Positions 10,561 through 32,715 are shown, numbered from the stretch's first letter. The stretch: DNA of 64,000 nt from a virus (IMGVR_UViG_2751185671_000004:64001-128000); one strand, 5' to 3'. Made by a program: numbers and translations. The notes: generated by a model not told the origin, from the sequence alone.

Positions 10561-12546
10561 TTAAAGATAAGGATCATCGGCATGTGTAGCGCCACGTTGC
10601 ATGAGCGGTAACATAGAAGAAACAACACCTGATGATGTCTTCTTTAGTTTTTTATTATCCTTAATGGTATCCTGTCTTTTTATTTCCTGCTCACCCAACG
10701 CCTTTTCCATTCGCCGCCAATGAATTTCCTTAAAACGATCCAATCCATAAATAGTGGCAGCGGCTCTGGCGTAGATACGACAATCTAATGCTTCGTTGTT
10801 CCGCGTTGGATCTTTTTCCCAAACAGCTTTGGGATAGCCCTTAACTATTTTTATTATTTTCTTTTCAGCCGTCAGCTGCTTAAAATATTCTTCTCCGTAT
10901 TGCGGATAGAAACAGCTTCCATGGGGCGGTTTTTCATTTTTTTTACGTTGCTCATCCGTCAGTCTTGGCAGCTTCAACCAACGATACAGCTCTGTTTTTG
11001 CCACAGGGCCACTCACACCCCAGACACGCAGACCTTTTCGCTTGCCTCCAGTATCCGCTTTCGACACCCCTAAAATTAATGCCGTATCATTATCGCGTCC
11101 TTTGATGGCAACAGCCGTTCGTGGTTGTGATGCTCGAGCACCAACAGCGCCCCACACCGGTTGAGGATATTGACGTACCCAGCTATACACATCTTGTGTT
11201 GCAAATCCTGAATCCACACACATAACACGTATCGGTAATGTGGCACCCGTTTCTGTTGGCCAATCTTTCGCTAATAGCTTATCGAGTTTATTCCACGTTT
11301 TTTGTTGCGCCGTATCACCATCTAATACGTGGTAATCCACCGACCAGGAAATCTTATCGCGTCCCCACGCGACAATTTCACATTCGATTCTATCTCGCTG
11401 AACATCCACACCCGCTGTTAAAAAGAGACCACCTTTTGGAACGACACCTAGAGGGTAATCATCACGACGTTCATAGAGGCGTTCCCACTCCGGTGCATCA
11501 TACTCGTCCTCGTAAGCCTCACCTAAGACCGTATTAATAAACCCTTTCATTAAATCAGGATTTAATAGCGCCTTTTCATAATCACTGGCCACATCTTCCC
11601 AGCTGTACCAACCAACCGGACTGTAGAGGGAAGAAAGGTGATAGCCGCGTGTTGTATCATTTCCTTCTGAGGTGGCAATCCATTCTCCCTTGAGCAACAT
11701 GTGTGTTTTATGATGTTCGTAGATTTTTTCTTGGCAGTGCTCACAGATATAGTGAACACTTTTGTAGTTGCCTTTTGTCCAATGTAGTTGTGTAAATTTT
11801 AGGGATTGTTTAACACCACAATGGGGGCAAGGAACAAAGTAGTAGCGCTGATCAGAGGCTTCAAACTCCCGCAGAATTCGAGACGTACTTTTTACTGTTG
11901 GTGTACTTACCAGTAATATTTTTCGGCGACGTCGAAACGTAGCTGTTCTTCGTTCTACTAGAAATTGTGGATCACCTTCACCATCTAAATCACCTACGGG
12001 CCAGCCGTCAATTTCATCCAAAAATAAATAACGGGCGGACATGGAGCGTAAGCCAACAGCACTGTTAGCCCCAGTGAGAACTAACATCCCCCCTGGGAAA
12101 TCTTTACTCAGGATCGTATTGCCTGAATCACGACTGCGTGCTGGAGCGATGCGTGCACGTAATTCAGGACAATCATTAATAAGGGTTTCGATACGTTGTC
12201 GTGAATTACGTTTAGCCATCTCAACTGTCGGTGAAACGGCCATCGTAGGGCCAGGGGCAATATGGATGATGTATCCTAAGAGGTTGTTTCCTGTCTCGGT
12301 CCCGCCCACCTGGGCACCTTTCATAAATGTCACTTTCTCGATAGGCGATGACGGCGAAAGGGAATCCATAATTTCTTTTAAATAGGGGGTTCGCTGTGTT
12401 CGCCAACGCCCCGCTTCGTCGGAGCTTTTCGCGGGTAATACTCGGTATTTGTCTGCCCACTCTGATACAAGTAAAAGCGGATCGGGTGTGAGTCCATCAG
12501 ACCACGCCTTTTCAATATCAACAAAGCCATCATAATTATCGACCAT
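10561..12546 (-). CDS. Terminase large subunit (gpA family)
   Basis: KGAQVGGTE, LFLDEID, STPT, GVDVQ, RNNEALDC. Confidence 0.97.
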   Translation of the reverse strand: MVDNYDGFVDIEKAWSDGLTPDPLLLVSEWADKYRVLPAKSSDEAGRWRTQRTPYLKEIMDSLSPSSPIEKVTFMKGAQVGGTETGNNLLGYIIHIAPGPTMAVSPTVEMAKRNSRQRIETLINDCPELRARIAPARSRDSGNTILSKDFPGGMLVLTGANSAVGLRSMSARYLFLDEIDGWPVGDLDGEGDPQFLVERRTATFRRRRKILLVSTPTVKSTSRILREFEASDQRYYFVPCPHCGVKQSLKFTQLHWTKGNYKSVHYICEHCQEKIYEHHKTHMLLKGEWIATSEGNDTTRGYHLSSLYSPVGWYSWEDVASDYEKALLNPDLMKGFINTVLGEAYEDEYDAPEWERLYERRDDYPLGVVPKGGLFLTAGVDVQRDRIECEIVAWGRDKISWSVDYHVLDGDTAQQKTWNKLDKLLAKDWPTETGATLPIRVMCVDSGFATQDVYSWVRQYPQPVWGAVGARASQPRTAVAIKGRDNDTALILGVSKADTGGKRKGLRVWGVSGPVAKTELYRWLKLPRLTDEQRKKNEKPPHGSCFYPQYGEEYFKQLTAEKKIIKIVKGYPKAVWEKDPTRNNEALDCRIYARAAATIYGLDRFKEIHWRRMEKALGEQEIKRQDTIKDNKKLKKTSSGVVSSMLPLMQRGATHADDPYL

Positions 12547-13105
12547 CGAATGTTACGGTTATATCAGCCAGTTCAGAGAGATGTTGTAGGACATAGCGAT
12601 CCAGTAATGTGTGTAAGGTGTGTTGGTCGACCGCTAATTGTGAAGCCATTTCAGCAGCAATACGTGACGGCCATCGTTGCCATGCATCGCGCTCTTCTCG
12701 CGCAAGTCGAAACACATGCGCCACGGCTTTATCTCGATTGACCAGTTCTTTTTTTAATTCCGCTAATTTAACGCGTTGTGTCTGCGCTTTAAGAATCTCG
12801 TTTGCTGTCCGTGCTTGCACATACGTTGTTGTACTTCCAGGTTTTTCTTTCAGCGTATCGTCAACGGCGTCCATCGCCTCTTGAGAAATAGGACGCGACT
12901 TCGGCTTATTCGCTTTGCTAACTGTTTTCGATAGATTTGAAAAAGTAGACTCCGTATTTATTTGCCATTCTTTATCGGCTTTTTCTATATCGATGGAACC
13001 ATCGCTCTCTTTTGTAATACGACCTGTTTTTATAGCTTTGCGCACAGCAGTATCCGACACCCCACGGTGGCGGGCATAGGCACGAATAGAGATTCCCATA
13101 GTCAT
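12536..13105 (-). CDS. Putative terminase small subunit
   Basis: N-terminal HTH SIRAYARHRGVSDTAVRKAI; overlaps terL start. Confidence 0.8.
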   Translation of the reverse strand: MTMGISIRAYARHRGVSDTAVRKAIKTGRITKESDGSIDIEKADKEWQINTESTFSNLSKTVSKANKPKSRPISQEAMDAVDDTLKEKPGSTTTYVQARTANEILKAQTQRVKLAELKKELVNRDKAVAHVFRLAREERDAWQRWPSRIAAEMASQLAVDQHTLHTLLDRYVLQHLSELADITVTFDGR

Positions 13106-13248
13106 GTTCCCTGGATAAAAAATACATCACTCAAATGACGAAAGAAAGCAAGTCATCGTGACTAAAAAAACAATAAAAAACCACTTGATGTGTTCGGCAG
13201 TTGAAGGGTTAATGTCCCTACAAACACGCAATACAAAAGGCAAATATA

Positions 13249-13488
13249 ATGATTAATTTTGACGAACCCAAAAGCCCCAAAGCAACGTTTACCGCTAAAA
13301 AAAATCAGATTGATAAGGCGCTACAACGCCTGCAACAGCACAGCGATGAATTCTTTAACGTTAATCAAGACAAAATACATTGGGGACATGTGACCGACAT
13401 TACCGATTACGCCGAATTACTAAAGCATCTTACCGATAGAGTATTTAAAGAAGGCGAATATGCGCCAGGAAACGCGGCTAAATACTAA
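13249..13488 (+). CDS. Phage hypothetical protein
   Basis: RBS, IHWGHV motif, preceded by conserved motif. Confidence 0.75.
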   Translation: MINFDEPKSPKATFTAKKNQIDKALQRLQQHSDEFFNVNQDKIHWGHVTDITDYAELLKHLTDRVFKEGEYAPGNAAKY

Positions 13489-13497
13489 ATAAAAAGA

Positions 13498-14013
13498 ATG
13501 AGTATAAACAACATCATAAGAGAGCGGCTACAACATGTAGCCCTTCATCGTCTCAAACTTATGAGTAAAAATAAAGAGATATCTATCATGATAAAACTTA
13601 CAAATACACAAACCACCATTTTATCTAACGCGGCGCAAAGAGAAACAGGCTCGATTTATCCACTGCCGAACACTATCAATAAAGGCATCGAGTCGCGTGT
13701 TATTAACAGCCTGCTCAAAAAAAAATTTATTGACGAGAAGAACGGTGACCACACTATTAACGCCAATGGGTTTAAAGCCATTGGCCTTGCACCTAAGGAG
13801 AAAACTAGAACAAGCAAGAATGATATTATTCTCCAGCTTGTGAGCGCCAAAGAAGGGGCAACGCTTAAGGCTTTATGCGAGGCCACCTCCTGGCAGAAAC
13901 ATAGCGTGAGGGGCGCTATAAGCACTTTAAAATCTAAAGGGCATACTATTATTTCCTCTAGAGACAGCGATGGATCACGCAAATACACACTAAAAAAAGA
14001 CAACACGCATTAG
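13498..14013 (+). CDS. DUF3489-like winged-helix protein
   Basis: EGATLKALCEATSWQKHSVRGAIS. Confidence 0.8.
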   Translation: MSINNIIRERLQHVALHRLKLMSKNKEISIMIKLTNTQTTILSNAAQRETGSIYPLPNTINKGIESRVINSLLKKKFIDEKNGDHTINANGFKAIGLAPKEKTRTSKNDIILQLVSAKEGATLKALCEATSWQKHSVRGAISTLKSKGHTIISSRDSDGSRKYTLKKDNTH

Positions 14014-14095
14014 ATATTACTCCGTCATTAACCTATCCCAAAAAATATAAAAACAGCGCCTCATTTGCTTGATCTTAGCGGTAAGTGAAGCGTGA

Positions 14096-14491
14096 ATGAA
14101 GCACAATATTATGCTAAAAACAAAAGGAATGATGATAATGATATCCGAAAAAGAAAATCAAACAAAAACCATGTTGTTAGTTAAAAATAAAAGCGCCTAT
14201 CACACGGTCTATTGTTTTAATAATCACCACTATGATGACGATGCGCTGAGCGATATTTTACATCAACACTACAACACCCCCGAGCGTATTGATCAACTTA
14301 TTCGTAGTGGGAACATACATACACTATATCCCGATAGTATACGTCTATTTACACTTGGCCATAAACTCTATCACCCCCATATCACGTATAAGGATCTCGG
14401 TATTGCAGTTGACGAGGGCGTTAAAGCCAATGCTCACCATATGTATATACATTGCAATGAAGCGTGGCGGCACACAGCACTCACCATTTGA
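14096..14491 (+). CDS. Hypothetical protein, paralog of 14596 and 15697 genes
   Basis: VYC...LHQHYNT...LIRSGNI; true start probably slightly downstream. Confidence 0.7.
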   Translation: MKHNIMLKTKGMMIMISEKENQTKTMLLVKNKSAYHTVYCFNNHHYDDDALSDILHQHYNTPERIDQLIRSGNIHTLYPDSIRLFTLGHKLYHPHITYKDLGIAVDEGVKANAHHMYIHCNEAWRHTALTI

Positions 14492-14595
14492 TGAGGCTTA
14501 AATAAAGGCACTAAAGACTTGATGTGGCAGTCGGATAGCGCTTCGAGAATTGCATTGATAGTCTCATACAACAACATACAAGGGTAAAAATTCAA

Positions 14596-14946
14596 ATGAA
14601 AAATGCTGCCATTCAACACTTCATGATTGCTGTACAGGGAAAACACTCTATTAAGACAATATATTGTCACCAAGCATCGTCTTATAGTGAACGAGAAGTC
14701 GATGAGATACTAAAAAAATATTACAACTCTTATTCACTAGCACAGAAACTCATTAAGCAAGGCAATCTGATTTCGCTAAAAGAAGACTACGTAAGTACGT
14801 ATTTTCTACATGACAATAGAGATTGGAAAGAGTGCAAACCCAAAATCTGCCAAGATATGGCCAGCGTTATAGCATTAGCCATACATAATACGGCCAATAC
14901 CCTATGCCTTTATAGCGATAATACATGGAAAATAATGAGGTTATAA
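14596..14946 (+). CDS. Hypothetical protein, paralog of 14096 and 15697 genes
   Basis: IYCH...LKKYYNS...LIKQGNL...WKECKP. Confidence 0.7.
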   Translation: MKNAAIQHFMIAVQGKHSIKTIYCHQASSYSEREVDEILKKYYNSYSLAQKLIKQGNLISLKEDYVSTYFLHDNRDWKECKPKICQDMASVIALAIHNTANTLCLYSDNTWKIMRL

Positions 14947-14972
14947 AAAATCATATCGCTGTTGGTGTATCC

Positions 14973-15664
14973 AACATCGTTAAAGGATGAACGATTTTTA
15001 AGATACATTTACCCGGAGGCTAATGTTTAGCCTCTATTAATAAATCATTAAAAAATACAGCCGCGCTTCCTACCTAAATATTTATCTATCATTGACTTGA
15101 TGTGTTCTGCGAATGAGGCGTTAATGTCCCTACCAAAAACAACCCAAGGAACTATCACCATGACTGAATTACGATTAGCGCTTACTAATAAAGTGCTAGA
15201 GGTTATTTACCCAGAAGACCACAAACATTTCAAAGAATATATCGAATACTTTACCGATGATGACCTTAAAAATATTAACGATGCAGGACAATACAATGAA
15301 ATCTATAAACATAAAGCTGAAATTAAAGCAACCTTAAAAGGTTTTGTCGGGTCAGATGTATTTAAAGCGGAATATATTGCTAATACCAACAATTGGGCAA
15401 CTCAAGCCCATTTGTTAATAATTAAGAGGATGACAGCAATGCTCGATTGCTTTGATATTCATACACTCAATGCTATTGCGAATCGTAGTGTTGATATACC
15501 TAGCATCGTTAAAGAAATGGACGATGTCTAACGATACAGATATTTGGAGGCTAATGTTTAGCCTCCATCAATAAATAATTTAAAAATATAGCCGCACTTC
15601 CTATCTCAATATTTATCCATCATTGACTTGATGTGTCTCGCGAATGAAGCGTTAATGTTCCTAC
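14973..15664 (+). repeat. ~160-bp imperfect direct repeat (14973-15133 / 15503-15664) containing hairpin and promoter-like motif
   Basis: Shared ggaggctaatgtttagcctc hairpin and downstream cattgacttgatgtg motif. Confidence 0.85.
15160..15531 (+). CDS. Hypothetical protein
   Basis: AAGGA RBS before ATG 15160; track start 15097 lies inside the motif. Confidence 0.7.
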   Translation: MTELRLALTNKVLEVIYPEDHKHFKEYIEYFTDDDLKNINDAGQYNEIYKHKAEIKATLKGFVGSDVFKAEYIANTNNWATQAHLLIIKRMTAMLDCFDIHTLNAIANRSVDIPSIVKEMDDV

Positions 15665-15696
15665 TTAATTAAATAGCAAACGAAACGGAGATAACA

Positions 15697-16038
15697 ATGA
15701 GCACACGATCAAGAATAGCCATAAAAAAAGGGGATTTTTTTTACGCAGTCTATTGCCATTGGAATGGATATGACAATATAGGCGGCGTAGGGCCGACATT
15801 ACGAGAACATCATAATTCCTTTGATAAGGCAGACGCCCTCATTGCTTTAGGTAACCTATCTTATATAGAAAATAAAGAGGTCTGTGCGTATCACCGGGAT
15901 CGCCATGAACCCTGGAGCCGCTGCAAACCCCAATACGCTAAAAGTATGGAGCAATTGATAATAGCTGCCGAGAGAAACGACGCTAATTTTCTTTATGTCT
16001 ACGACGATAACCAATGGCAAACACACAAACTTTATTAA
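15697..16038 (+). CDS. Phage hypothetical protein (MSTRSRI...YCHWNGY type)
   Basis: GGAG RBS; YCHWNGY motif. Confidence 0.75.
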   Translation: MSTRSRIAIKKGDFFYAVYCHWNGYDNIGGVGPTLREHHNSFDKADALIALGNLSYIENKEVCAYHRDRHEPWSRCKPQYAKSMEQLIIAAERNDANFLYVYDDNQWQTHKLY

Positions 16039-16120
16039 TTTAATAATGCTTCATCTACTTGATCTAAAACGCAGATGAAGCGTTAATGTCGTTAGATAAA
16101 CAAATAAATAAGGCATTGAT

Positions 16121-16375
16121 ATGACAAAACTATTTGGCAAAGATACACTTAATTTAAACGAAAGACTGCGTTTGAAAAAGTTTACCGAAGAACTAGAAAT
16201 CATAACAAAAAAATATGGCGTCGTCTTAACGCTTTGTGACTCCGATAGCTCGGTTGAAATAACCTCGCCTAGTAACCCAGAACTTACTCATGTTGAATAT
16301 AATATAGAACCCTTTGATGGTGGCCTAACGCCAGTCAACTGGCAATTTTCGTATATTGACTTAGAACTCGAATAA
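16121..16375 (+). CDS. Hypothetical protein, similar to C-terminal half of 16493 gene
   Basis: FTEELEIITKKYGVVL vs FIEELTRLSQKHGVVL. Confidence 0.7.
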   Translation: MTKLFGKDTLNLNERLRLKKFTEELEIITKKYGVVLTLCDSDSSVEITSPSNPELTHVEYNIEPFDGGLTPVNWQFSYIDLELE

Positions 16376-16492
16376 ATATTTTCAGAAGCTGACCTTAAAC
16401 AATAATAATCGACTTGATGTGTCTCGCGAATGAGGCGTTAATGTCCCTACAGAAACACACACCTACCACCTAACTATAAGGATTTAACTACG

Positions 16493-16993
16493 ATGAGAAA
16501 ATACAACGCAGAAGAATTAGCCTTTATGTCCCAATATCATATAACACAACGTCAATTTAATTATATAAGCCTCCTGCTTAAAGATATGGAAGCGGCCACG
16601 GACAATATCTTCAATGTCGCATTACTCAATAATGGTATAGGAAAAGATATCAGGTTAGCGGCTTTAAAACTGCGGCCACAATTTTTAACTGATCCCTTTT
16701 GCGAGTTGAGTATTGATGAAAAGGGTTTAAAAGTAATACCGATGACTAGCGACACATACTCAGGCATAGAAAACGACACTGAAAAACATGTACAAAAAGA
16801 ACAATACTCGCAAGACGAACAGTTCAAAGCATTCATAGAAGAACTTACACGCTTATCCCAAAAACACGGTGTCGTATTACACGTTACTGGTGGTGTCACA
16901 TTTGTTAATCCAGGAGCACCTTGTTTGCACGACCTTCAGTATTCGAGTGATGCCACGAGTGGCGATTTGGAGCCAATCAACGGGTACGATTAA
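16493..16993 (+). CDS. Hypothetical protein
   Basis: AAGGA RBS, preceded by motif. Confidence 0.7.
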   Translation: MRKYNAEELAFMSQYHITQRQFNYISLLLKDMEAATDNIFNVALLNNGIGKDIRLAALKLRPQFLTDPFCELSIDEKGLKVIPMTSDTYSGIENDTEKHVQKEQYSQDEQFKAFIEELTRLSQKHGVVLHVTGGVTFVNPGAPCLHDLQYSSDATSGDLEPINGYD

Positions 16994-17225
16994 CCCAGGG
17001 ATATGCCATATTATTCTCTAAAATAAATATTTAATCCGCACATCGAATGAGAAATAAAAATATTAATAGAATAAAGGTTTTTTAAGGATAATGGTAAAAG
17101 TTCGCATTCCTAATGTGTGGGATTTTTCTAGTAAAAAAATAAAAATATATGCATCAATGACTTGATGTAGTCGTCGGAACGAGCGTTAATGTCCCTACAG
17201 AAACACATCAAGCGAGGAAATTAAA

Positions 17226-17504
17226 ATGGGCACATGGGCATTACCTAAAACAAAAAAAATCGCAAACGACTTACAAGTATTGATGAAAAAGCCAATACCT
17301 TGCAACCAAGCAACTCATCACTTAGTCGACATTATCGGCGACGATGATTTATACGATCTTCTCGATGAATTGGAGGGTGATTTTGATATACGCCCCATCA
17401 TTCGAGACTTTTTAAGCGAAGTCATCACACAGCGCATCGACTACAACAATAATGACTGGGATAAGGAAGCCCTCCGTATTTGCACACGGCTAACCTCACC
17501 TTAG
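17226..17504 (+). CDS. Hypothetical protein
   Basis: GAGG RBS, preceded by motif. Confidence 0.7.
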   Translation: MGTWALPKTKKIANDLQVLMKKPIPCNQATHHLVDIIGDDDLYDLLDELEGDFDIRPIIRDFLSEVITQRIDYNNNDWDKEALRICTRLTSP

Positions 17505-17507
17505 AGG

Positions 17508-18764
17508 TTAAGCCGACGTTACCTCTAGGCTGTTAAAGGTAAGAGAATCCAACAGCCTTGTCGCTTCCCCCCCTGAATATTCTTGCCAACGACGAATAAT
17601 AACGTCCACATATTTAGGATCAAGCTCTACTAGCCTTGCACGGCGGTTCGCTTTCTCACAGGCAATTAAGGTACTGCCAGAGCCACCAAACGGGTCTAAT
17701 ACAATATCCCGACTTTTACTGGAATTTCTTATTGCTTTCTCCACAAGCTCGACCGGCTTCATCGTAGGATGTAAGTCACTCTTATTAGGCTTATTAAAAA
17801 ACCATAGATCGGTTTGATTTCTATCACCGCACCAGAAGTGGTCGCTGCCCTGTTTCCATCCATAGAGAATCGATTCGTATTGCCGCTGATAATCGGAATG
17901 GCCTAATGTAAAATGATTTTTCGCCCAAATAATAAATGTCGACCAACGGCCACCGGCATCGCGAAATGCCTTTTGTAAGGTATCCAGCTCGCTGGAGGAC
18001 ATACAGATATAACACGCGCCTTTAGTTTTATCGAGGATATGCGTTAGCGCGTCTTTTAAAAATGTGTAAAAGCCCTCGCCTAGATTATCATTGAGTATAG
18101 GGCGACTATTAAAGCGTATTTTATCGCGCTGGTTGCTCCCATAATCCACATTATAAGGCGGATCGGTAAAGGTCATATCGACCAACTCATCCCCCAGTAG
18201 CGTATTAATATCCTCACGGCTAGTGGCATCTCCACATAATAATTTATGATCGCCTAGCAACCATATATCACCGACTTGACTGATCACACTTTCTTCTGGC
18301 TCAGGCACCTCATCCTCGTTACCCTGGCTATCCGATGCGCTATCAAAATCCAGTAATTCATCTAGCTCGTCATCCGAAAAGCCAATGATATCGAGATTAA
18401 ACCCTAGGTCTTTTAAATCATCAAGTTCCAAGGCAAGTAGTTCGTCGTTCCATCCAGCGTTTTCTGCGAGTTTATTATCTGCAATAACCAGCGCCCGTCT
18501 CTGTGATTCTGTTAGATGATCTAGAATAATCACAGGGGCTTTTTCAAGTTGTAATTGTTGTGCGGCTAGTAGGCGGCCATGGCCTGCGATAATCGTTCCG
18601 TCACTCGAGACTAGGATAGGATTAACAAAACCAAACTCGACAATACTGGCAGCGATTTGAGAGACTTGGGTATCGTCATGTGTGCGAGCGTTACGGGCAT
18701 AGGGAATAAGTTTTTTGAGTGGCCAGTGCACCACCGAATCTACAGCGATGTGCGCCATATACAA
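17508..18764 (-). CDS. ParB-domain N6/N4 DNA methyltransferase (beta class)
   Basis: PYARNARTH and AGHGR ParB-N; DPPY; VLDPFGGSGST. Confidence 0.95.
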   Translation of the reverse strand: MYMAHIAVDSVVHWPLKKLIPYARNARTHDDTQVSQIAASIVEFGFVNPILVSSDGTIIAGHGRLLAAQQLQLEKAPVIILDHLTESQRRALVIADNKLAENAGWNDELLALELDDLKDLGFNLDIIGFSDDELDELLDFDSASDSQGNEDEVPEPEESVISQVGDIWLLGDHKLLCGDATSREDINTLLGDELVDMTFTDPPYNVDYGSNQRDKIRFNSRPILNDNLGEGFYTFLKDALTHILDKTKGACYICMSSSELDTLQKAFRDAGGRWSTFIIWAKNHFTLGHSDYQRQYESILYGWKQGSDHFWCGDRNQTDLWFFNKPNKSDLHPTMKPVELVEKAIRNSSKSRDIVLDPFGGSGSTLIACEKANRRARLVELDPKYVDVIIRRWQEYSGGEATRLLDSLTFNSLEVTSA

Positions 18765-18834
18765 ACCTTAGTAAATTAAAAAAAACAGCAAGAAAAAATG
18801 AACGGTGAAGTAAATTAATACGTTATGTCGCGAG

Positions 18835-18949
18835 TGCGAACCTAAGTTAAAAATGCGAACCGCGAAGTGCGAACCACTTAACAACATCTATCGCTAGCGA
18901 AATTCGGCGGTCTTGCCGCCCGCATGGCGTCCATTTCTACCAAGTACCT
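18835..18949 (-). other. Putative cos packaging site (cosQ/cosN/cosB-like)
   Basis: Minus strand AGGTACT-N21-GGGCGGCAAGAC-CGCCGAATTTCGCTA resembles lambda GGGTCCT...GGGCGGCGACCT-CGCGGGTTTTCGCTA; three GGTTCGCA repeats follow. Confidence 0.7.
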
Positions 18950-19600: not shown

Positions 19601-19960
19601 CTAAACCCCCGTTATTTGCGCAGGTTTTTGGGTAATCTCAATGATAGGGATATCAGAATTATTTTTCGTCTTAGGATACTTCCCAAAACGGTAATGCCAT
19701 AACGTACATTTCGTCGCTGGACATAATCGCGCTTCATGGGCTGATTTAGCACAGTCAAGGCATTCAGCACGAATGGCCTTAAGCGGTGAACGATAGCCTT
19801 CGGGTTTTTCTTTCCCATAAAATATATTCTTACCCATGCGATAGGTGTGTAACGGGCAGGAATTAAATTCACAATGTTTTACCTGAGTACGAGTTTCCGC
19901 ACAATCCAAGCATTTTTGTCGAATTGTTTTGATCGGTGATTTTCTAGCGGTAGTTTCCAT
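19601..19960 (-). CDS. Small protein with two tandem CxxC...C...C zinc-binding repeats
   Basis: SPIKTIRQKCLDC..C..CPLHTYRMGK and SPLKAIRAECLDC..C..CTLWHYRFGK. Confidence 0.7.
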   Translation of the reverse strand: METTARKSPIKTIRQKCLDCAETRTQVKHCEFNSCPLHTYRMGKNIFYGKEKPEGYRSPLKAIRAECLDCAKSAHEARLCPATKCTLWHYRFGKYPKTKNNSDIPIIEITQKPAQITGV

Positions 19961-24134: not shown

Positions 24135-26618
24135 CTACGCCACCTGCTCTTTTTGCTTAGCGGCAGTAAAAATAATGCGTTGAATATCGTTTTTATTAAA
24201 ATTAAACGCAATTAAACAACTAGCGTGATAACGCGTTAAACTAAAGTTATAGGTGTATGTTGTTGGTAAATACTTAAGCTGTTGTGGTGTCGCGGTTTCA
24301 TTGAGCCATTGACGCGATTTTTCGGCACCCCCTTCGGTTTCGTTAAGATTGAGCCAGTCATCACACGCAGCGATACATAACGTTCTCTCGCCAACGGACA
24401 GCAGTCGTGTGTGTTGTTGTCGAGCACCCGCTACCGCATACCAATGGCCATATAAATAAAAGGCGCCTGCCCACGCAGCAAACCCTGTGGCCATCATGGC
24501 TGTACTATCGTGGTAAAGATCCACCCATTTAAAACTAGAGCGTGAAAGTAAGTCGACCTCTGTCATGACAAAGTCACTGAGTTCAGCACGGCTATCATTA
24601 GCGGCGGCAGTATTGTCAACAGGAACACTGAAGGAATAACCACATAAGGGACACAGTCGACACCCTGCGGGTATAGCAGCATCACATTCAGGACACGACT
24701 TTTGAGGGGCATCCTCACCCACCCCCTCTCCTTCTAGATTAACGTCTTGTTCAAGCTTGCCGTGAATAAGCGAGCTAGTTCCAAAGTCCAAGATAATACA
24801 ATCTGTTTTGATAATGTTAGGATGCTCATTCGGATCGACCGTGCGGAGTCCTCGCCCCACCATTTGAATCATGGTGCCTTGATAACTGTTCGGACGTAAT
24901 AGCACCACACAACTGGTGGGGGTGTAGTCATAGCCTTCGGTTAAGACATCCACATTAACAACCACTTGAGATTCCCCTGACTCGTAGCGTTCGAGCCTTT
25001 CTTTGCGTTCTTCTTTGGTTAAGCCTCCATAAATAACTTCTGTATTAATCCCGCCTTTTTGAAACGTTGACGCCACATTCTTAGCATGACTGACCGTGGA
25101 ACAAAAAATAATTGTGGGCCGGTCTGACGCTTTTTCTTTCCAATGCTTTAGAACAGACTCATTAATTAATGTTTTATTCATGATGGCGTTAACGGCATTC
25201 ATATCGAAGTCATTGGCCGTTTTTTTCACTTGCGATAACTCACCTTGCGTACCCACATCAATCACATAGGTCACAGGTTTAACAAGATGGCCTGCTTGAA
25301 TTAATTCACCTAGCGTGATTTGATCGGCAACATTGGAAAAGGTATCCACCAACCCTTTTTTATCACCACGATTGGGGGTGGCGGTGACACCATATAAAGC
25401 AAGATCGGGATTCTTCGCTCGCGCCGCATCAATGATTTTTTGATAGCTGTCTGCTGCCGCATGATGAGCCTCATCGATGACCAATAAATCTAACGCGGGT
25501 ATTTGCAGTAAATTATTTTCTCGTGAGAGTGTTTGCACCATCGCGAAAGTGGTATCACCTTGCCAGGATTTTTCGTTCGCATCAAATACAGAGGTTGTGA
25601 GCGTCGGATTAACACGTAAAAATTTAGCCTTGTTTTGTTGTGTTAATTCGTCGCGGTGCGCCAACACACAGGCTTTAGCCCCTTGATTTTTTCTAGCCCA
25701 TTGTCCTACCAGTCCCGATAACATAATTGTCTTACCGCTATTGTGTGTGACAGTGAAATCTCCCATCACATACAAGTGATCCTGGTCGACCGAAAAACCA
25801 TAGTAGTCGCCTAACCCCACTTCATGCACGGTAAAGCCTGTATGTAAGACATTCTCCTCGTGAGCACTGTCGGCTATCGTCAAGCTATAGTAGGGTATTC
25901 CATTGACCGTTTTAGATGTAGACGATGGATATAGCCCTAAGCTACGGGAAATAAAAGTCACGTCATCCGCAAGCTGTTTTGATGGGGTAGAAAACGCACG
26001 GCAGCTTTTAACAGGGTTGCTATCAGAATCAATTAACCCTTCTAGGATAGCCCCACGTGTTTCTCGTGATCCTACTTTATAATGATGAGGAATCGGCGGC
26101 GGACAATGCATTAAGTGTTTGTCACCTAACAATAACCCGAATAAATACGGATCGACAGAAGGTGCTTCTTGTTGAGGAAAATCAATTGCTGTTCGGTAAA
26201 GTTTGTGTATGCGTTTAAAGGTAGCACTTTGTTCCAGATAAGCGCTCACACTAATATTCACAATGCTGTCGGTGACATTATCCGCTCGTTTATTATCGGG
26301 GATAACGTTCCCAGTTTTGACTAACGAAAGAATATGATCCTTATTGACAGTAAACGGCTCGCCTTTTAATGGACGTATCTCATACATCCTATTGGTTCCC
26401 TGATATAAACGTTGGACATGCCGAGGGCGACTATCTGGCCCCATAAGGGTATCGCCCACCTGAATGTCTTCGACAGGTTTTAGTGTGCCGTCATACATTA
26501 ATAACAATGTGCCGGGTGCATGACATCCTGTAGGTGCCACACCTAGTGTATTTTTGTGTTTCTCGAGCGCAGCGAGGCTCCGCTCGACAAACGTGGTTTG
26601 TCGAGGTCTTAGTAACAT
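24135..26618 (-). CDS. SF2 DEAH helicase interrupted by an intein
   Basis: APTG|...|SGKT, DEAHH, TATP, QMVGRGLR, C-terminal zinc ribbon. Confidence 0.93.
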   Translation of the reverse strand: MLLRPRQTTFVERSLAALEKHKNTLGVAPTGCHAPGTLLLMYDGTLKPVEDIQVGDTLMGPDSRPRHVQRLYQGTNRMYEIRPLKGEPFTVNKDHILSLVKTGNVIPDNKRADNVTDSIVNISVSAYLEQSATFKRIHKLYRTAIDFPQQEAPSVDPYLFGLLLGDKHLMHCPPPIPHHYKVGSRETRGAILEGLIDSDSNPVKSCRAFSTPSKQLADDVTFISRSLGLYPSSTSKTVNGIPYYSLTIADSAHEENVLHTGFTVHEVGLGDYYGFSVDQDHLYVMGDFTVTHNSGKTIMLSGLVGQWARKNQGAKACVLAHRDELTQQNKAKFLRVNPTLTTSVFDANEKSWQGDTTFAMVQTLSRENNLLQIPALDLLVIDEAHHAAADSYQKIIDAARAKNPDLALYGVTATPNRGDKKGLVDTFSNVADQITLGELIQAGHLVKPVTYVIDVGTQGELSQVKKTANDFDMNAVNAIMNKTLINESVLKHWKEKASDRPTIIFCSTVSHAKNVASTFQKGGINTEVIYGGLTKEERKERLERYESGESQVVVNVDVLTEGYDYTPTSCVVLLRPNSYQGTMIQMVGRGLRTVDPNEHPNIIKTDCIILDFGTSSLIHGKLEQDVNLEGEGVGEDAPQKSCPECDAAIPAGCRLCPLCGYSFSVPVDNTAAANDSRAELSDFVMTEVDLLSRSSFKWVDLYHDSTAMMATGFAAWAGAFYLYGHWYAVAGARQQHTRLLSVGERTLCIAACDDWLNLNETEGGAEKSRQWLNETATPQQLKYLPTTYTYNFSLTRYHASCLIAFNFNKNDIQRIIFTAAKQKEQVA
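25740..26525 (-). mobile_element. Intein (262 aa) with degenerate LAGLIDADG endonuclease remnants
   Basis: Starts CHAPGT, block B TVNKDHIL, ends VTHN before Ser; YLFGLLLGD and LEGLIDSDS. Confidence 0.92.
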
Positions 26619-27389: not shown

Positions 27390-28283
27390 TTAGTGTGTGG
27401 TGTTGCGTGTATTTTTAGGTTGTAACGGTGGTTGAGTGTCTAGATGTGCAGGCGCTTTAAGACCGTAGTCAAGATGGTGAACCATCATGTCTGCAGGCCG
27501 TTTTATTTTTTCCATAAGACGACCTAAATGCGGCTCTTCAATGACATCTAATTTGCGACTTCTATCCTTCGCCGGATAACCAAAAGGGTTTAAGGTATGA
27601 TTGATAAAAGCACGATAGGGGGTGCCGTCTTCAGAAGGCAGGTCTGCCATAGTAATGACCTGATCGACAATCCCAGGCAATTCTAATCCGGTTTTAGACC
27701 CTTCGATTTGTGGCTCAAAAACGCGACGATTAAATTCATCCACCTTTTCATCGAGTATTCCCACGAACCAGACACTTTTATTACGTGTATGCTGTAAGTG
27801 CGTTAACCATGCAATCATCTCCTGGCCGTGTAATCCGTAAGCACCACGAGTATCGGGTTTACCAGTGCGCTCACTAAAGGCTTGCGGTTGACCTTTACAC
27901 CATTGAAAACATAAACGACCGGCAACAGTAATCGAGTCAATAAAAATAATATCGTAGGTATTTAATTGTTCCGGATGACCATACTTTTTACAGACCGCAT
28001 TAAAGTGCGCTTCACTATAGGATTGTTCGTCACGCAGCGCGTAATTAGGCCCACCAATAAACACAGCAAAGTCTCGACACTCTTGCCATGTCTTGGGCCT
28101 AAAGGCATCACCATTCCAATCCTCCACGGCAAGATCACCGGCTTCGATATCAAAAAATAATGTGGACGATGTCGGGAGCGTTAACAGTAAAGAAGTTTTA
28201 CCGATACCACTTTTACCAAAAATACAGCCTTTAACACCCCGGTGCTGTGATCGTCGTTGCTCTGCTGTAATAAGAGGAAACAT
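27390..28283 (-). CDS. AAA_24 / Sak4-like ATPase
   Basis: GKSGIGKT, IFIDSIT, AKDRS. Confidence 0.88.
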   Translation of the reverse strand: MFPLITAEQRRSQHRGVKGCIFGKSGIGKTSLLLTLPTSSTLFFDIEAGDLAVEDWNGDAFRPKTWQECRDFAVFIGGPNYALRDEQSYSEAHFNAVCKKYGHPEQLNTYDIIFIDSITVAGRLCFQWCKGQPQAFSERTGKPDTRGAYGLHGQEMIAWLTHLQHTRNKSVWFVGILDEKVDEFNRRVFEPQIEGSKTGLELPGIVDQVITMADLPSEDGTPYRAFINHTLNPFGYPAKDRSRKLDVIEEPHLGRLMEKIKRPADMMVHHLDYGLKAPAHLDTQPPLQPKNTRNTTH

Positions 28284-28495
28284 TAAGCATGCACCTCCTG
28301 AGCTTTTTCACCGGTGCTTTTACGCAAAGACTGTGCTTCATACGCGATAATATCTTCCTCGCGATATACCACACGGTTATGTAATTTTAAAAAGGCAGGG
28401 CCAATCCCTTTTGATCGCCAATTCGCGATCGTGCTTTCACTTAAATTCCAACGAAGGGCAAGTTGTTCTTGATTAAGATGTGAGGCTAACGTCAT
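28283..28495 (-). CDS. AlpA/Xis-like HTH DNA-binding protein
   Basis: LNQEQLALRWNLSESTIANWRSKGIGPAF. Confidence 0.88.
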   Translation of the reverse strand: MTLASHLNQEQLALRWNLSESTIANWRSKGIGPAFLKLHNRVVYREEDIIAYEAQSLRKSTGEKAQEVHA

Positions 28496-28535: not shown

Positions 28536-28590
28536 TTTGTACTGGCGTCTAGTGGGCTTTGTACTGCAATTTGTACTGTAATTTGTACTG
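28536..28590. promoter_or_regulatory. Four TTTGTACTG direct repeats upstream of replication operon
   Basis: Copies at 28536, 28558, 28570, 28582. Confidence 0.7.
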
Positions 28591-28724
28591 CGGCGATTTT
28601 TTTTGAAAAAAGTCGTATAAATATATTGTATACGACTATTAATTGCACAAAATTAAATGGTGATAATATTACTTAACATTAGCTCCGGGTGAAAATTATC
28701 GTAGTCATAAGAGCCAGTTTTTAT

Positions 28725-29870
28725 TTAAATATTAAAACAATAATATCCTCTTTTAGGACTCACGATATAGTCTTCCCATTCCAACGAGTTACTAAATAAT
28801 GATTGCATGCGTGTTGCGCCACCTCTTTGTCCAGGTATTTTAGTTGCAGCTAGAATTTCTTTAGCCGGTAACTCCCAACGTCCTTTTTTGGCTTGCTCAT
28901 ACATATAACGAATCGCCAAAGGACGACGTTCGCCACCAATATACCAATCTGGCTTCCCTTTTATTTTTAAGATACGTCTCGCTGCATCATAGTGCACGGG
29001 GAGATAAGAGGCGTCTGATGTAACATAATCAAGTTTAAGGGTAGGTTGCGCGTGATTAACCTGACGTAGTGCCTGACTATCCACCGACACCTGGTGAGAG
29101 TTACCTGTCAACAATTGATAACGATAGGGCTTAGGGTATTGTATTTTTCCTACGTCGCTGATATTGAGAAGATAACGGGCAAAAAATACCGTATTCATTT
29201 TACGTGTATATAGCGTACTGGCCGTCACATCCGTTATCCCTGTTCTAGGATCGTAGACGATACTGACGGCTTGCGACCATGATTTAGAAAGTAATGCCGT
29301 GCGCCTATCAATGGGATAGTCATTGGCTTTGGGTAAGCGATTAAGGTACACAAGAATTTTAAAATTATAAGAATACTCTGAGAGTAAGCGCTTGACGACT
29401 TTTATATCAATATCCTCTTCAGCGTATCTCAGCATGCCCGCTAAACTGCGTTTATAGTGTACGAGCGGATTCTGACCTTCGTTGAGAGTCAACAGTGGCG
29501 GCAACTGAAATACCGTGGTATTCGGGTCAGAAAGGTGATCCTCTGCTAATAATACAGCGACGACTTCATGAAATAGCTGTTGATGGTGGACATAAAGCCA
29601 AAGACTTTGCTCATGTTCGTTGTGGATAGAATAAAATGTCTGCCGTTCTCCGTAAGACATCGCAGAATTTACTGAGGAAAGATCAAAGCGTTTAATGTTT
29701 TGAGCCACTAAAAAAATCGAGTCAGCCCACATATTCGCGGGATTCACACCGCCTTGAGTATCATGAGAAGCGGCTATTTTAGAATGGATAAGTGAATGAT
29801 AAGTATCGGTGTTAACAGCATGTAACAAACGCGTACACGGATCAAGAGACATAGGCATACTATCGTCCAT
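28725..29870 (-). CDS. Hypothetical protein, possible regulator with C-terminal winged helix
   Basis: 381-aa ORF upstream of AlpA-like gene; C-terminal AIRYMYEQAKKG...RGYYCF. Confidence 0.55.
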   Translation of the reverse strand: MDDSMPMSLDPCTRLLHAVNTDTYHSLIHSKIAASHDTQGGVNPANMWADSIFLVAQNIKRFDLSSVNSAMSYGERQTFYSIHNEHEQSLWLYVHHQQLFHEVVAVLLAEDHLSDPNTTVFQLPPLLTLNEGQNPLVHYKRSLAGMLRYAEEDIDIKVVKRLLSEYSYNFKILVYLNRLPKANDYPIDRRTALLSKSWSQAVSIVYDPRTGITDVTASTLYTRKMNTVFFARYLLNISDVGKIQYPKPYRYQLLTGNSHQVSVDSQALRQVNHAQPTLKLDYVTSDASYLPVHYDAARRILKIKGKPDWYIGGERRPLAIRYMYEQAKKGRWELPAKEILAATKIPGQRGGATRMQSLFSNSLEWEDYIVSPKRGYYCFNI

Positions 29871-30375
29871 GGTAAAAAAACGAATCTAATAAAGCGTAAA
29901 AATTTAAAAACCAACTACTGAAAAGCTACCACGACGTGATATCAGCATGATGCAAACAAAAAATAAATAATAAGAATCAAAACCAAATCGCTTTTATTTC
30001 ACTTGTTAAGTGTATTTCTTATTAAAAATAGAAAAATAAAAGCTTTAAAAAACCTCCTTAAAATTACTTTCTCTTACCAGCAGTTATATATTCTTATAAT
30101 GCAATACAGAGAGTTACTAATTGTCTTATCGCATCCCCCCTCATTTATTTCCTACAATAAGAACATCGGTTAATAACAAAGGTTCCTCACGCGTGACAAA
30201 CAACAAGCGATTACCTCACGACATGACTGCCGAAGAGCGGATAAAAGAAATTGCTGAAATACTATCAAATGGATTAATACGTAAACGATTTCAAGCATTA
30301 TATCAAAAAGGCAAGCGGATTCATGCAGAAAAGAAAGCTTTAAGCGCCAAAATATAGCGAAGACTAACTAACTGC

Positions 30376-30405
30376 TTGCTTCGTCTGCCTACCTGAGCGT
30401 ACATG
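30376..30405 (+). promoter_or_regulatory. Variant of the array motif (TTGCTT-N17-GTACATG) upstream of DUF2924-recombinase operon
   Basis: Same spacing and GAGCGT core as the 13-17 kb motifs. Confidence 0.6.
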
Positions 30406-30437: not shown

Positions 30438-30920
30438 ATGCCGATAACAGAAACACCCCCTTCTACACTAACGCAGATTATGCAACTTGAAAGCATGACC
30501 ATGAAAGAACTGTTAGCTATGTGGCAGGAGTTCAACCCAACGCCACCCCCAGTACGCGCACGAAGCTATATTGAACGACGTCTAGCTTATGCATTACAAG
30601 TTAACGCGTTAAGTACCCAAGAGAAAAAAATAGTGGCTAAAAATACACAACGTATTGAAAGCATCAGTAAATCCTATGCACTCAATAAAAGCAAAAATAA
30701 ACAAGGAACTTATATTCCAGTACCGGGCACCATTTTGAAGCGGCTTTACAACGATGTGGAATACGAAGTGATTGTTCTATCAGACGGACAGTTTGAATTT
30801 CAAAAACAGCTCTATAAAAGCTTATCCAAAATTGCGAAAGAGATTACCGGTACACATTGGTCTGGGCCTGCGTTTTTTGGTTTGCGTAAGCCCAACACCC
30901 CATCGAAAAATAAAAAATGA
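30438..30920 (+). CDS. DUF2924 domain protein
   Basis: ERRLAYALQ, PGTILKRLY, YKSLSKIAKEITGTHWSGPAFFGL. Confidence 0.9.
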   Translation: MPITETPPSTLTQIMQLESMTMKELLAMWQEFNPTPPPVRARSYIERRLAYALQVNALSTQEKKIVAKNTQRIESISKSYALNKSKNKQGTYIPVPGTILKRLYNDVEYEVIVLSDGQFEFQKQLYKSLSKIAKEITGTHWSGPAFFGLRKPNTPSKNKK

Positions 30921-30935
30921 GCGAGAGAAAAATAG

Positions 30936-32294
30936 ATGAGCAAACATGTTATACCTAAACGCCGATGTGCTGTCTACACACGAAAATCCCACGAAGAGGG
31001 ACTGGATCAAGATTACAATTCTATTGATGCTCAAAAAGATGCCGGGCACGCGTATATTGCTGCGCACAGAAGTGAAGGCTGGATTTCAGTGAACGATGAC
31101 TATGATGATCCCGCCTATTCTGGTGGGACACTGGAGCGCCCTGCCCTAAAACGCTTAATGAAAGATATTCAAGAAAGTAAAGTTGATACGGTAGTGGTAT
31201 ATAAAATAGATCGCCTGACCAGAAGCCTCCATGACTTTTCGCAGCTAGTGGAGATATTTGAGCGAATGAATGTATCCTTTGTTTCTGTGACACAGGAATT
31301 TAACACGACTAGCTCCATGGGACGCTTAATGTTAAATATCTTATTATCCTTTGCACAATTTGAGCGTGAGGTCACAGCAGAACGTATACGAGATAAAGTG
31401 GCCTCGAGTAAAAGAAAAGGCTTATGGATGGGAGGTATTCCACCGTTCGGCTATGATGTTAAGGATAGGCTATTAGTGGTTAACAACAATGAGGCTAAGA
31501 CAGTCCGTCATATATTTTCTCGCTTTTTAGAGATAGGGTCAGCCACACTGCTTGTAAAAGAATTACGCCTTGACGGGATATCAACAAAATCATGGACAAC
31601 GAAGGATAATAAATATCGCCCTGGGAAGCCTATCGATAAAGGCTTTATTTATAAGCTTTTCCAGAATCGAACATACTTAGGTGAGATTGGGCACAAAGGC
31701 CAATGGTATGAAGGTAAGCATGATGCCATTATCGATAAGACACTCTGGGAAGCCGTCCATAAGAGGCTTGCTGAGAACTATAAGGCAAAAGGCAACACTA
31801 CGCGTGCTAAAGTTCCTTTCTTATTAAAGGGATTGCTATTTGATGCAGAAGGTCGTGCTCTCACCACGTCGTTTGCCAATAGTCGGCACAAAAATGGTAA
31901 ACGCTATCGTTATTACCTCAGTATACGTGATGCGAAAGAAGGCGCTGGCACTTCCGATTTAACCCGGTTTCCGGCCAGTGAAATAGAAGCTGCTGTGACA
32001 ACACAGGTCATGACTCTATTAAAGTCGTCAGAGATCGTCAAAGAGGTCACCACTATCGCTCAGGTTCACGACGATGAATTAGACGAAGCTATGGTAGCGG
32101 TAGCACTCACAAAGATGACGACTATTTGGGAGCAACTCTTTCCTGATGAGCAGGCACGGCTCATTCATCTGATGATTGAGAAAATTATTATCACCCCTGA
32201 TGATATGGATCTAAGGCTAAGAAAGAATGGACTCGAACAGCTGGCACAAGAAATAACACCGAAAACTTCGAAAGAGAAAGTGGTCAATGGATAA
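30936..32294 (+). CDS. Large serine recombinase (integrase)
   Basis: CAVYTRKS, SGGTLERPAL, VYKIDRLTRS, FAQFERE. Confidence 0.95.
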   Translation: MSKHVIPKRRCAVYTRKSHEEGLDQDYNSIDAQKDAGHAYIAAHRSEGWISVNDDYDDPAYSGGTLERPALKRLMKDIQESKVDTVVVYKIDRLTRSLHDFSQLVEIFERMNVSFVSVTQEFNTTSSMGRLMLNILLSFAQFEREVTAERIRDKVASSKRKGLWMGGIPPFGYDVKDRLLVVNNNEAKTVRHIFSRFLEIGSATLLVKELRLDGISTKSWTTKDNKYRPGKPIDKGFIYKLFQNRTYLGEIGHKGQWYEGKHDAIIDKTLWEAVHKRLAENYKAKGNTTRAKVPFLLKGLLFDAEGRALTTSFANSRHKNGKRYRYYLSIRDAKEGAGTSDLTRFPASEIEAAVTTQVMTLLKSSEIVKEVTTIAQVHDDELDEAMVAVALTKMTTIWEQLFPDEQARLIHLMIEKIIITPDDMDLRLRKNGLEQLAQEITPKTSKEKVVNG

Positions 32295-32715
32295 TCAAAC
32301 AATACCTATGTCTCGTATAATTGAAAGCAGCGACGGTTCCCTCTCTATAAAGATCTCACTTAGACCTAAAGTGCGCAGTGGCCGTAAAATTATTACACTA
32401 CCCGGTAACACAGATAGCGACTACCGCCCTTGGGATAGCGAACCCACGCCACTTCAATTAGCGCTAGCGAGGGCTTATGAGTGGGAGCAAAAACTCAACA
32501 GCGGCGTCTATGGCTCGATAAAAGAGTTAGCGAATAAAGAAGGTGTGGATAATAGTTACGTCAGCCGTATCTTAAATCTTAACATATTGGCGCCAGATAT
32601 AATCAAAGCGATTCTTGATGAAAATATATCCGAGGGGGTGACGCTCTTTACCCTGGGGGCGAATACGCCTATGGTATGGGAAGAGCAAAGAGTGAAGCTT
32701 GGTGTCACCAAATAA
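32287..32715 (+). CDS. Recombinase-associated HTH protein
   Basis: SIKELANKEGVDNSYVSRILNLNILAPDI; overlaps recombinase stop. Confidence 0.8.
   Translation: MDNQTIPMSRIIESSDGSLSIKISLRPKVRSGRKIITLPGNTDSDYRPWDSEPTPLQLALARAYEWEQKLNSGVYGSIKELANKEGVDNSYVSRILNLNILAPDIIKAILDENISEGVTLFTLGANTPMVWEEQRVKLGVTK

Follow-up and report, generated by a model that had tools for sequence, protein, structure and literature searches.

A conserved promoter-type element appears to head shuffled accessory cassettes in a family of proteobacterial temperate phages

We analyzed a 64-kb stretch of viral DNA (IMGVR_UViG_2751185671_000004:64001-128000, called here the window over its whole length), which is part of a prophage integrated in the genome of a marine bacterium, and we focused on a short motif that recurs in front of its small genes. 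From sequence comparisons, this motif appears to be a conserved promoter-type element of a widespread family of temperate phages that encode a DUF3489 protein, and not an invention of the array in which it was noticed. Our preferred explanation as a whole, to which we assign a probability of about 0.65, is that the motif is a promoter-type element private to this family and heads accessory cassettes that are shuffled.

The pattern CTTGATS-N17-GTKAATG, 31 bases long, has seven exact matches in the window (starting at 13184, 14068, 15096, 15627, 16058, 16413, and 17161, all on the plus strand), where 0.01 were expected and none of 100 shuffles reached seven. The repeated motif with fixed spacing that the initial annotation had described before small genes is therefore real. 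From the end of each copy to the downstream ATG there are 32 to 50 nt, and each small plus-strand gene has a Shine-Dalgarno sequence. TCCCTAC lies 3' of four copies (13184, 15096, 16413, and 17161) and TTCCTAC is present at 15627. One more copy, annotated as degenerate at 14516, starts at 14518 and has only its -35 half left: CTTGATG is kept, the -10 half reads TTCGAGA, and the score of 2.9 on a position weight matrix (PWM) made from this genome's own copies is equaled or exceeded at 224 genome positions. Its position and its 36-nt similarity to the 17143 copy are our only grounds for counting it as a decayed copy. Copies 3 and 4 lie in composite repeats that are 86% identical to each other (15002-15133 versus 15533-15664). 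The array would thus consist, as judged from its sequence, of seven active-looking units and one decayed unit. The copies are as follows.

13184..13214, plus strand: motif copy 1, ahead of g1-g2, the ancestral family-wide copy (pattern match; counterpart before g1 in relatives)
14068..14098, plus strand: motif copy 2, diverged, with -10 GTGAAT, ahead of g3 (pattern match; PWM score 28)
14518..14548, plus strand: decayed copy, -35 half only, before g4 (position and repeat similarity)
15002..15133, plus strand: composite repeat of 132 nt, with a hairpin at 15015-15035 (-12 kcal/mol), an AT-rich stretch, and motif copy 3 (15096-15126)
15533..15664, plus strand: second 132-nt copy of the composite repeat, with a hairpin at 15545-15567 (-15.3 kcal/mol, z -4.7) and motif copy 4 (15627-15657)
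16058..16088, plus strand: motif copy 5, ahead of g7 (pattern match)
16413..16443, plus strand: motif copy 6, ahead of g8 (pattern match)
17161..17191, plus strand: motif copy 7, ahead of g9 (pattern match; 95 to 98% identical to the g9 promoter copies of the siblings described below)

The motif is confined almost entirely to related prophages. The whole genome of 7.1 Mb has 20 exact matches, of which four related prophage-like elements account for 18; these elements also contain all of the top 22 PWM hits. These siblings are the window, two more elements on the same chromosome (P2 and P3), and a 71.7-kb contig (C3); the three further siblings lie at G000 C1:~1862-1882k and C1:~1934-1956k and on C3. 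Exact-match and PWM scans found no host gene with the motif in this genome. C3 appears circular, because a methyltransferase gene stands at its end and DUF6362 at its start. An 8.5-kb stretch of C3 (array and methyltransferase) is 100% identical to the third chromosomal element, the remainder being 76 to 97% identical; this could be either a recent exchange or an assembly effect.

In the window, the array block occupies 13184-17504 (4.3 kb) and holds nine small genes, g1 to g9, whose direction is opposed to both neighbors. Their G+C content is 0.37 to 0.40, versus ~0.45 in the surroundings, and comparison with simpler relatives places the array as an insertion between the methyltransferase gene and terS. 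The genes and borders are listed here.

12536..13105, minus strand: terS (terminase small subunit), divergent from motif copy 1, left border (phrog_57, E 6.6e-31)
13249..13488, plus strand: g1, 79 aa, phrog_14596 (homologues in relatives)
13498..14013, plus strand: g2, DUF3489 protein (PF11994, E 2.3e-17)
14129..14491, plus strand: g3, 120 aa, weak phrog_1987 paralog
14596..14946, plus strand: g4, 116 aa, phrog_1987 paralog, not in sibling arrays
15160..15531, plus strand: g5, 123 aa, no family match
15697..16038, plus strand: g6, 113 aa, phrog_1987 (E 4.1e-27)
16121..16375, plus strand: g7, 84 aa, C-terminal part related to that of g8
16493..16993, plus strand: g8, 166 aa, no family match
17226..17504, plus strand: g9, 92 aa, no family match (homologue in the Rickettsiales-type relative L060)
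17500..17529, no strand assigned: hairpin between the convergent g9 and methyltransferase genes (-16.6 kcal/mol for 17490-17550, z -1.75)
17508..18764, minus strand: ParB-N / N6_N4 DNA methyltransferase, right border (Pfam; phrog_498)

The gene content of the array differs between the siblings in the following way.

Window: g1 g2 g3 g4 g5 g6 g7 g8 g9
P2: g1 g2 g3 g5, a 348-aa gene on the opposite strand, g9
P3 and C3: g1 g2 g3 g6 g7 g5' g8' g9

The four siblings thus differ in both content and order. The suggestion of the initial annotation that units could be gained or lost by recombination is borne out by this comparison, which shows reordering at the motif as well. The blocks of homology between siblings start 10 to 25 nt before TTGAT and end just past the last stop codon of a unit. 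In P2, the 348-aa gene stands in place of cassettes g6 to g8 on the strand opposite to the array, and the replacement joint still has a decayed promoter and a g6 stump of six codons. Between the window and P2, the g5 proteins share 93% identity and their promoters only 67%; each of these two promoters is closer to the promoter of another cassette (83% and 81%, respectively), and the g1 and g9 promoters are 95 to 98% identical between siblings. Promoter copies have thus moved from one cassette to another. The 348-aa gene itself (L074:2376-3422, plus strand; G000 C1:1878376-1879422) belongs to no Pfam or PHROG family.

The motif of the window is one version of a more widely distributed element. 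Its strict form occurs in 77 IMG/VR stretches, where 73 of the 88 matches have an open reading frame (ORF) of 40 aa or more behind them (median offset, 34 nt; interquartile range, 28 to 40 nt). The window-specific pattern has no match in 61 methyltransferase-anchored loci, and direct-repeat searches of these loci also yielded nothing; the family form was found by reading the upstream regions of g1 and then relaxing the pattern. In the relatives' g1 upstream regions, the element reads (C/G)TTGATA-N15-GCGTTCATG, and the family consensus is CTTG(A/C)T-N16-GC(G/A)TT(C/A)ATG. Distant alphaproteobacterial members have CTTGCT, CTTGGC, or CTTGTC, then N16, then GC(G/A)TTCATG. Far from being peculiar to the array, the motif is an element of long standing in the whole phage family.

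This family, which is apparently WO-like, has hosts among the Alpha-, Beta-, and Gammaproteobacteria. In the methyltransferase-anchored loci, the same phage backbone was found in Cellvibrionaceae, Hahella, Microbulbifer, Aliikangiella, a Bathymodiolus symbiont, Burkholderiales, Micavibrio, Hyphomicrobiales, Geminicoccaceae, and Rickettsiales. Family motif sites lie ahead of g1 or DUF3489, of an operon encoding DUF2924 and a recombinase, and of many small ORFs; the element before g1 or DUF3489 was seen in prophages of Cellvibrionaceae, Hahella, a methanotroph symbiont, Burkholderiales, Micavibrio, and Geminicoccaceae. In the simple members, only g1-DUF3489, sometimes with g6-like and g9-like genes directly after, oppose the lytic genes between the methyltransferase gene and terS, and a g6 homologue likewise directly follows DUF3489 in relatives. 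Micavibrio-type phages have one copy before g1, which there stands after DUF6362, and another before DUF3489. Several units occur in other members too: in G056, which belongs to a different genus of the host's family, a prophage has 8 kb with at least 11 motif+ORF units, and G124 has seven motif units on both strands. Multicopy arrays of 3 to at least 11 units were seen in L016 (a Burkholderiales metagenome-assembled genome), L070 and L071 (G056), L072 (G124), L081, and L106 (IMG/VR), and G056 has a second motif cluster ~25 kb from the first.

The assignment of the element as a promoter relies on its position and descent. In Rickettsiales-type relatives, the homologous sites, which stand before DUF3489 or the g9 operon, are of the following forms.

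L061: CTTGAT-N16-GC-TATAAT
L060: CTTGAT-N16-GC-TATACT
L019, L032, and L034: CTTGAT-N16-GC-CATACT
L063: CTTGAT-N16-GG-TATGTT

The L061 element is a canonical sigma70 promoter, TTGATA-N17-TATAAT, and the L060 version with TATACT lies directly ahead of the g9 homologue, as copy 7 heads g9 in the window. The preceding AAGC is also kept in the GC-TATAAT, GC-TATACT, and GC-CATACT forms. Because of the alignment with these canonical sites, GTT(C/A)AT of the motif falls in the -10 slot and CTTGAT in the -35 slot. All seven copies of the window have a -35 hexamer (TTGATG or TTGATC) that matches TTGACA at 4 of 6 positions, and the spacer is 17 bp in every copy, in the same register as in L061. The initial annotation had proposed modular motif+gene units under one factor (a sigma70-like promoter or a phage regulator). 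The layout of the units, with one type of signal of promoter geometry, is supported; the geometry, the -35 box, and the spacing fit sigma70, and recognition as an ordinary sigma70 promoter does not hold, since the -10 box has no A at position 2. On the grounds of its position and descent, we take the element to be a promoter whose -10 block is probably subject to more than sigma70 recognition alone.

A simpler account would be that the copies are ordinary weak sigma70 promoters that were duplicated with their genes, with no special factor involved and with conservation due to common descent. The -35 box does vary as sigma70 boxes do (TTGATG, TTGCTT, TGGATT, TTGGCT, and TTGTCT; also TTGATA in the family), the spacer is 17 bp, the upstream sequence is AT rich in this genome, and some relatives have the canonical version. 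We nevertheless find this account unlikely. The A at position 2 of the -10 box (-11) is close to essential for sigma70, and a poor -10 box would not be expected to survive drift, yet GC(G/A)TT(C/A)ATG is nearly unchanged over three proteobacterial classes in which the flanks and spacer have fully diverged. The -10 block and its GAAGC prefix are almost invariant across hosts of ~38% to 65% G+C. Because the -10 box lacks A at position 2 and is preceded by the conserved GAAGC, RNA polymerase would need an extra specificity factor here.

Such a factor could in principle be an alternative sigma factor of the host (of the extracytoplasmic function [ECF] type, sigma32-like, or other) that the phage family exploits. 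CGTT, the typical core of ECF -10 boxes, is separated from the upstream box by about the distance found in ECF promoters; the sigma32 -35 box, CTTGAA, is similar to CTTGAT; and Rickettsiales hosts, whose phages use the canonical sigma70 version, have very few sigma factors. The full sigma32 consensus is CTTGAA, 13 to 17 bp, and CCCCATNT. CTTGAT fits it, and the octamer containing CAT lies 18 bp away, not the usual 13 to 17, and has no C-run. The -35 box also lacks the AAC of ECF promoters, the 7.1-Mb genome has the motif on no host gene, and Alpha-, Beta-, and Gammaproteobacteria would all need to read one sequence, so we hold a host alternative sigma factor to be very unlikely. Scans of neighboring phage genes against Pfam and PHROG found no gene for an ECF sigma factor and no sigma domain. 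The consensus sequences of sigma54, sigma28, and sigmaE, compared by eye, have the wrong geometry.

The best candidate for the extra specificity factor, named tentatively and at odds well below even, is the DUF3489 protein itself. The g2 protein matches PF11994 with 63.3 bits (gathering cutoff, 29.5), and its conserved start is probably, by alignment, the ATG at 13588. Its predicted structure (predicted local distance difference test [pLDDT], 88) has two tandem winged-helix domains, with matches of the MarR, TFE-alpha, and RPC34 types. It could be an activator, a specificity factor, or an autoregulating repressor. In all of the motif-bearing loci we checked that were long enough, DUF3489 is encoded downstream of a motif copy; of the 77 IMG/VR stretches with the motif, 44 contain a g2/DUF3489-like gene, as do 6 of 10 further IMG/VR records searched over their whole length. 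The four IMG/VR matches without DUF3489 look like chance matches: three lie inside long open frames and one has no following gene. The recognition helix reads HTVRG or HSVRG in gammaproteobacterial motif-type phages, HTVRG or HTVRS in the Micavibrio type, and HTARG, HTARS, or HTTRS in relatives with canonical promoters, a contrast that gives a weak lead on the reader and is confounded by phylogeny. As for other candidates, g1 was rejected, since three whole genomes with motif-bearing prophages lack phrog_14596, and DUF6362 occurs in both motif-type and canonical-type phages (in a comparison of gene content covering 10-kb flanks).

A more specific version would make DUF3489 a phage promoter-specificity factor that reads GAAGCGTT(C/A)ATG and lets host RNA polymerase open promoters without the -10 adenine. 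The TFE and RPC34 winged-helix initiation factors, both of which its model resembles, would be its functional likenesses. We judge this version decidedly unlikely; if true, DUF3489 would provide a huge phage family with a private channel for transcribing its lysogeny-side and accessory genes.

DUF3489 figures also in an explanation in which the copies are operators and not promoters: a phage repressor, e.g., DUF3489, would bind GAAGCGTT(C/A)ATG, the true promoter would overlap or lie nearby, and one switch would govern the accessory genes and the recombinase operon. This would be compatible with our preferred explanation if the element were a combined promoter and operator. It would account for a 13-nt block conserved far beyond the needs of a sigma70 -10 box and for the partial palindrome ATGAA-GCG-TTCAT in the relatives' block; the predicted DNA-binding winged-helix gene that always lies behind one copy would fit autoregulation, and the recognition-helix difference between motif-type and canonical-promoter phages adds a weak point confounded, as said, by phylogeny. 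The element is asymmetric, however, and always runs in the direction of the downstream gene, all 14 copies in this genome have a broken palindrome (TTAAT), no other conserved promoter-like sequence lies between the block and the start codon, and the homologous Rickettsiales-type site is itself a canonical promoter. We therefore consider pure operators possible and on balance improbable.

The element also precedes genes for integration. The initial annotation had placed a variant at 30376 before a DUF2924-recombinase operon; the variant starts at 30375, is identical in the siblings, and has a counterpart in distant relatives.

30375..30405, plus strand: variant motif CTTGCTT-N17-GTACATG, 32 nt before DUF2924 (identical in all siblings)
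30438..32715, plus strand: operon of DUF2924, a large serine recombinase, and a third recombinase-module gene (phrog_11806, phrog_95, and phrog_14161)

This variant has a low score on the PWM made from the copies of this genome and fits the family-wide consensus. Its -35 form, CTTGCTT, recurs often in G056 and G124; in Micavibrio-type phages, DUF2924 is preceded by CTGGAC-N16-GCATTCATG. By these comparisons, the link of the motif to integration genes is real, with the weakest match of all the copies. A broken extra copy of DUF2924 (46963-47448, plus strand) is 81% identical and has a stop after 53 codons; it has kept the -10 half of the 30375 variant, with a different upstream half, and adjoins a transposase-like ORF (48144-48641). 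It looks like the remnant of a further related element.

The motif variant on the serine recombinase operon and the cassette-array layout, with one repeat per cassette, could suggest site-specific recombination sites, either integron attC-like or acted on by the serine recombinase; the GCTTCA/TGAAGC hairpin that CTTGCTTC variants can form could suggest an RNA leader or processing signal. We regard both as extremely unlikely. An integron or attC array was rejected: the motif contains no attC-type dyad, no integron integrase (IntI) was found, and the sole recombinase found is the large serine recombinase. Each gene has its repeat on the 5' side, as far away as a promoter would be, conserved operons of simple relatives have a single copy at their head, and the homology tracts at the junctions are tens of nucleotides long, as for homologous exchange. 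A general RNA hairpin between the two blocks was rejected as well, being found in CTTGCTTC variants only; the CTTGAT copies, including all those of the window, have no such hairpin potential.

Our preferred explanation, a family-private promoter-type element heading shuffled cassettes, would work as follows. In simple relatives, one copy would drive the small operon g1-DUF3489(-g6-g9), opposed to the lytic genes. In the prophages of this genome, the element would have been copied until nearly every accessory gene formed a promoter+gene cassette of its own, transcription presumably starting at the motif. The two units with an upstream hairpin would represent a terminator+promoter joint resembling the promoter-early stem-loops (PeSLs) discussed below, and a weaker variant would head the DUF2924-serine recombinase operon. 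Homologous recombination between copies would swap, delete, reorder, and re-promote cassettes, resulting in a hyperplastic accessory region.

Several observations weigh against this explanation. The -10 hexamer is GTTAAT or GTGAAT in the window and GTTCAT or ATTCAT in relatives, with T at position 2, which departs from the canonical box; a simple sigma70 consensus scan called none of the copies; and, judging from the -10 sequence, promoter activity with host RNA polymerase alone is doubtful. A clear upstream hairpin is present at only two of the seven units, and both hairpins lack a U-tract. Recent duplication may account for the similarity of the copies within this genome as much as selection does. 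Finally, DUF3489 is also found in relatives with canonical promoters, and its link with the motif may reflect only shared ancestry.

The products of the cassettes gave no functional lead. DUF3489 is the sole match of the cassette proteins to Pfam, PADLOC gave only marginal matches (the best being DpdA, E 8.7e-4, for g4), and PDB sequences gave none. A model of g6 (pLDDT 79) had no Foldseek match and no VIA Z above 4.2, and the ESM Atlas was uninformative for g6 and g9. Used as a query, g7 also matches the P3/C3 homologue of the C-terminal half of g8 (39% over 57 aa). The array DNA had no blastn match among 50,697 phage genomes. The anti-defense or host-takeover role that had been proposed for the cassettes is unsupported. 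At the left border, terL (phrog_15) lies beside terS on the minus strand. The hairpin at 17500..17529, on the right, is a possible two-way terminator with weak statistics.

The rest of the prophage, on the minus strand, encodes Sak4, an SNF2 helicase with an intein, a primase-helicase, RuvC, DUF6362, and the methyltransferase. The SNF2/ResIII helicase gene (24135-26618, minus strand) has its intein near the N terminus of the product, with Hom_end_hint at residues 32 to 129 and Hom_end at residues 176 to 259. Three tandem TTTGTACTG repeats (28558-28592) lie between a small HTH_17 gene of the excisionase/AlpA-like kind (28283-28495, minus strand) and a gene for a 381-aa protein (28725-29870); the repeats could be an operator or iterons. 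Immediately 5' of the ParB-methyltransferase gene there are three (G/A)TGCGAACC repeats (18833-18875), which could serve as a site of the ParB type or one related to packaging. A 119-aa ORF (19601-19960, minus strand) contains two zinc-ribbon-like CxxC...C....C repeats; it matched nothing in Pfam or PHROG and was not found in the relatives' loci.

We found no description of the motif in the literature, where DUF3489 turned up only in a survey of domains of unknown function (DUF), DUF6362 nowhere, and DUF2924 in connection with prophages only in Wolbachia genomics. The motif defines a simple sequence tag by which to find the accessory (moron-like) genes in a family of proteobacterial prophages that is very widespread, has hardly been studied, and is related to the WO-type phages of Wolbachia. 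It also poses the question of how transcription proceeds from a good -35 box with a strictly conserved -10 box that lacks the essential adenine. Relatives with a perfect TATAAT at the same site, together with four sibling arrays in one genome, are ready experimental material.

Among known systems, the array resembles an integron as a string of small, mostly unknown genes with one repeat each and a content that varies between relatives. It differs in that the repeat is 5' and promoter-like, not a 3' attC dyad, that there is no IntI, and that exchange looks homologous. Promoters of ECF (group 4) sigma factors, e.g., EcfG, have the form GGAAC-N16/17-CGTT and share with the motif two highly conserved blocks that stand about as far apart, the -10 block containing CGTT; the motif has CTTGAT as its -35 box, without AAC, and there is no host regulon with the motif. 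The CII-dependent promoters of lambda (PRE, PI, and PaQ) have TTGC-N6-TTGC repeats around a poor -35 box and a usable -10 box. Like the motif, these defective promoters with a shared activator site head the integrase gene and transcripts that oppose the lytic genes; in the motif, it is the -35 box that is good and the conserved -10 box that is aberrant, and no CII homologue was identified. Morons of lambdoid phages, in the concept of Hendrix and Juhala, are accessory genes with their own promoter, and sometimes a terminator, located between conserved modules. The cassettes resemble them in having a lower G+C content than their surroundings and an orientation that is often independent of the lytic operons, whereas the individual promoters of morons are unrelated and those of the contiguous array seem to be one homologous, family-specific element.

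The closest likeness is to the PeSLs of T4-type phages, described as a short promoter and stem-loop that is repeated before small nonessential ORFs of a hyperplastic region and whose recombination leaves close relatives with insertions, deletions, and replacements (Arbiol et al. 2010, PMC2839356; Comeau et al. 2014, PMC4122927). As far as these accounts go, the two systems share motif copies before small ORFs in a variable region and joints of insertion, deletion, or replacement between siblings. They differ in the promoter, which is a strong sigma70-like early promoter in PeSLs and has a noncanonical -10 box here, and in the stem-loop, found here at only 2 of 7 units (-12 and -15.3 kcal/mol) and without a U-tract. 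PeSLs belong, in the same accounts, to lytic T4-type myoviruses, with formation of mini-circles, and our motif to an integrated temperate element with a serine recombinase; the latter element, in addition, heads conserved DUF3489 and recombinase operons across three proteobacterial classes. Cassette shuffling known from lytic T4-type phages would thus also shape temperate phages. We regard the finding as real and well defined: promoter-mediated modular shuffling of a known kind, operating here in temperate phages with what appears to be a noncanonical, family-specific promoter.

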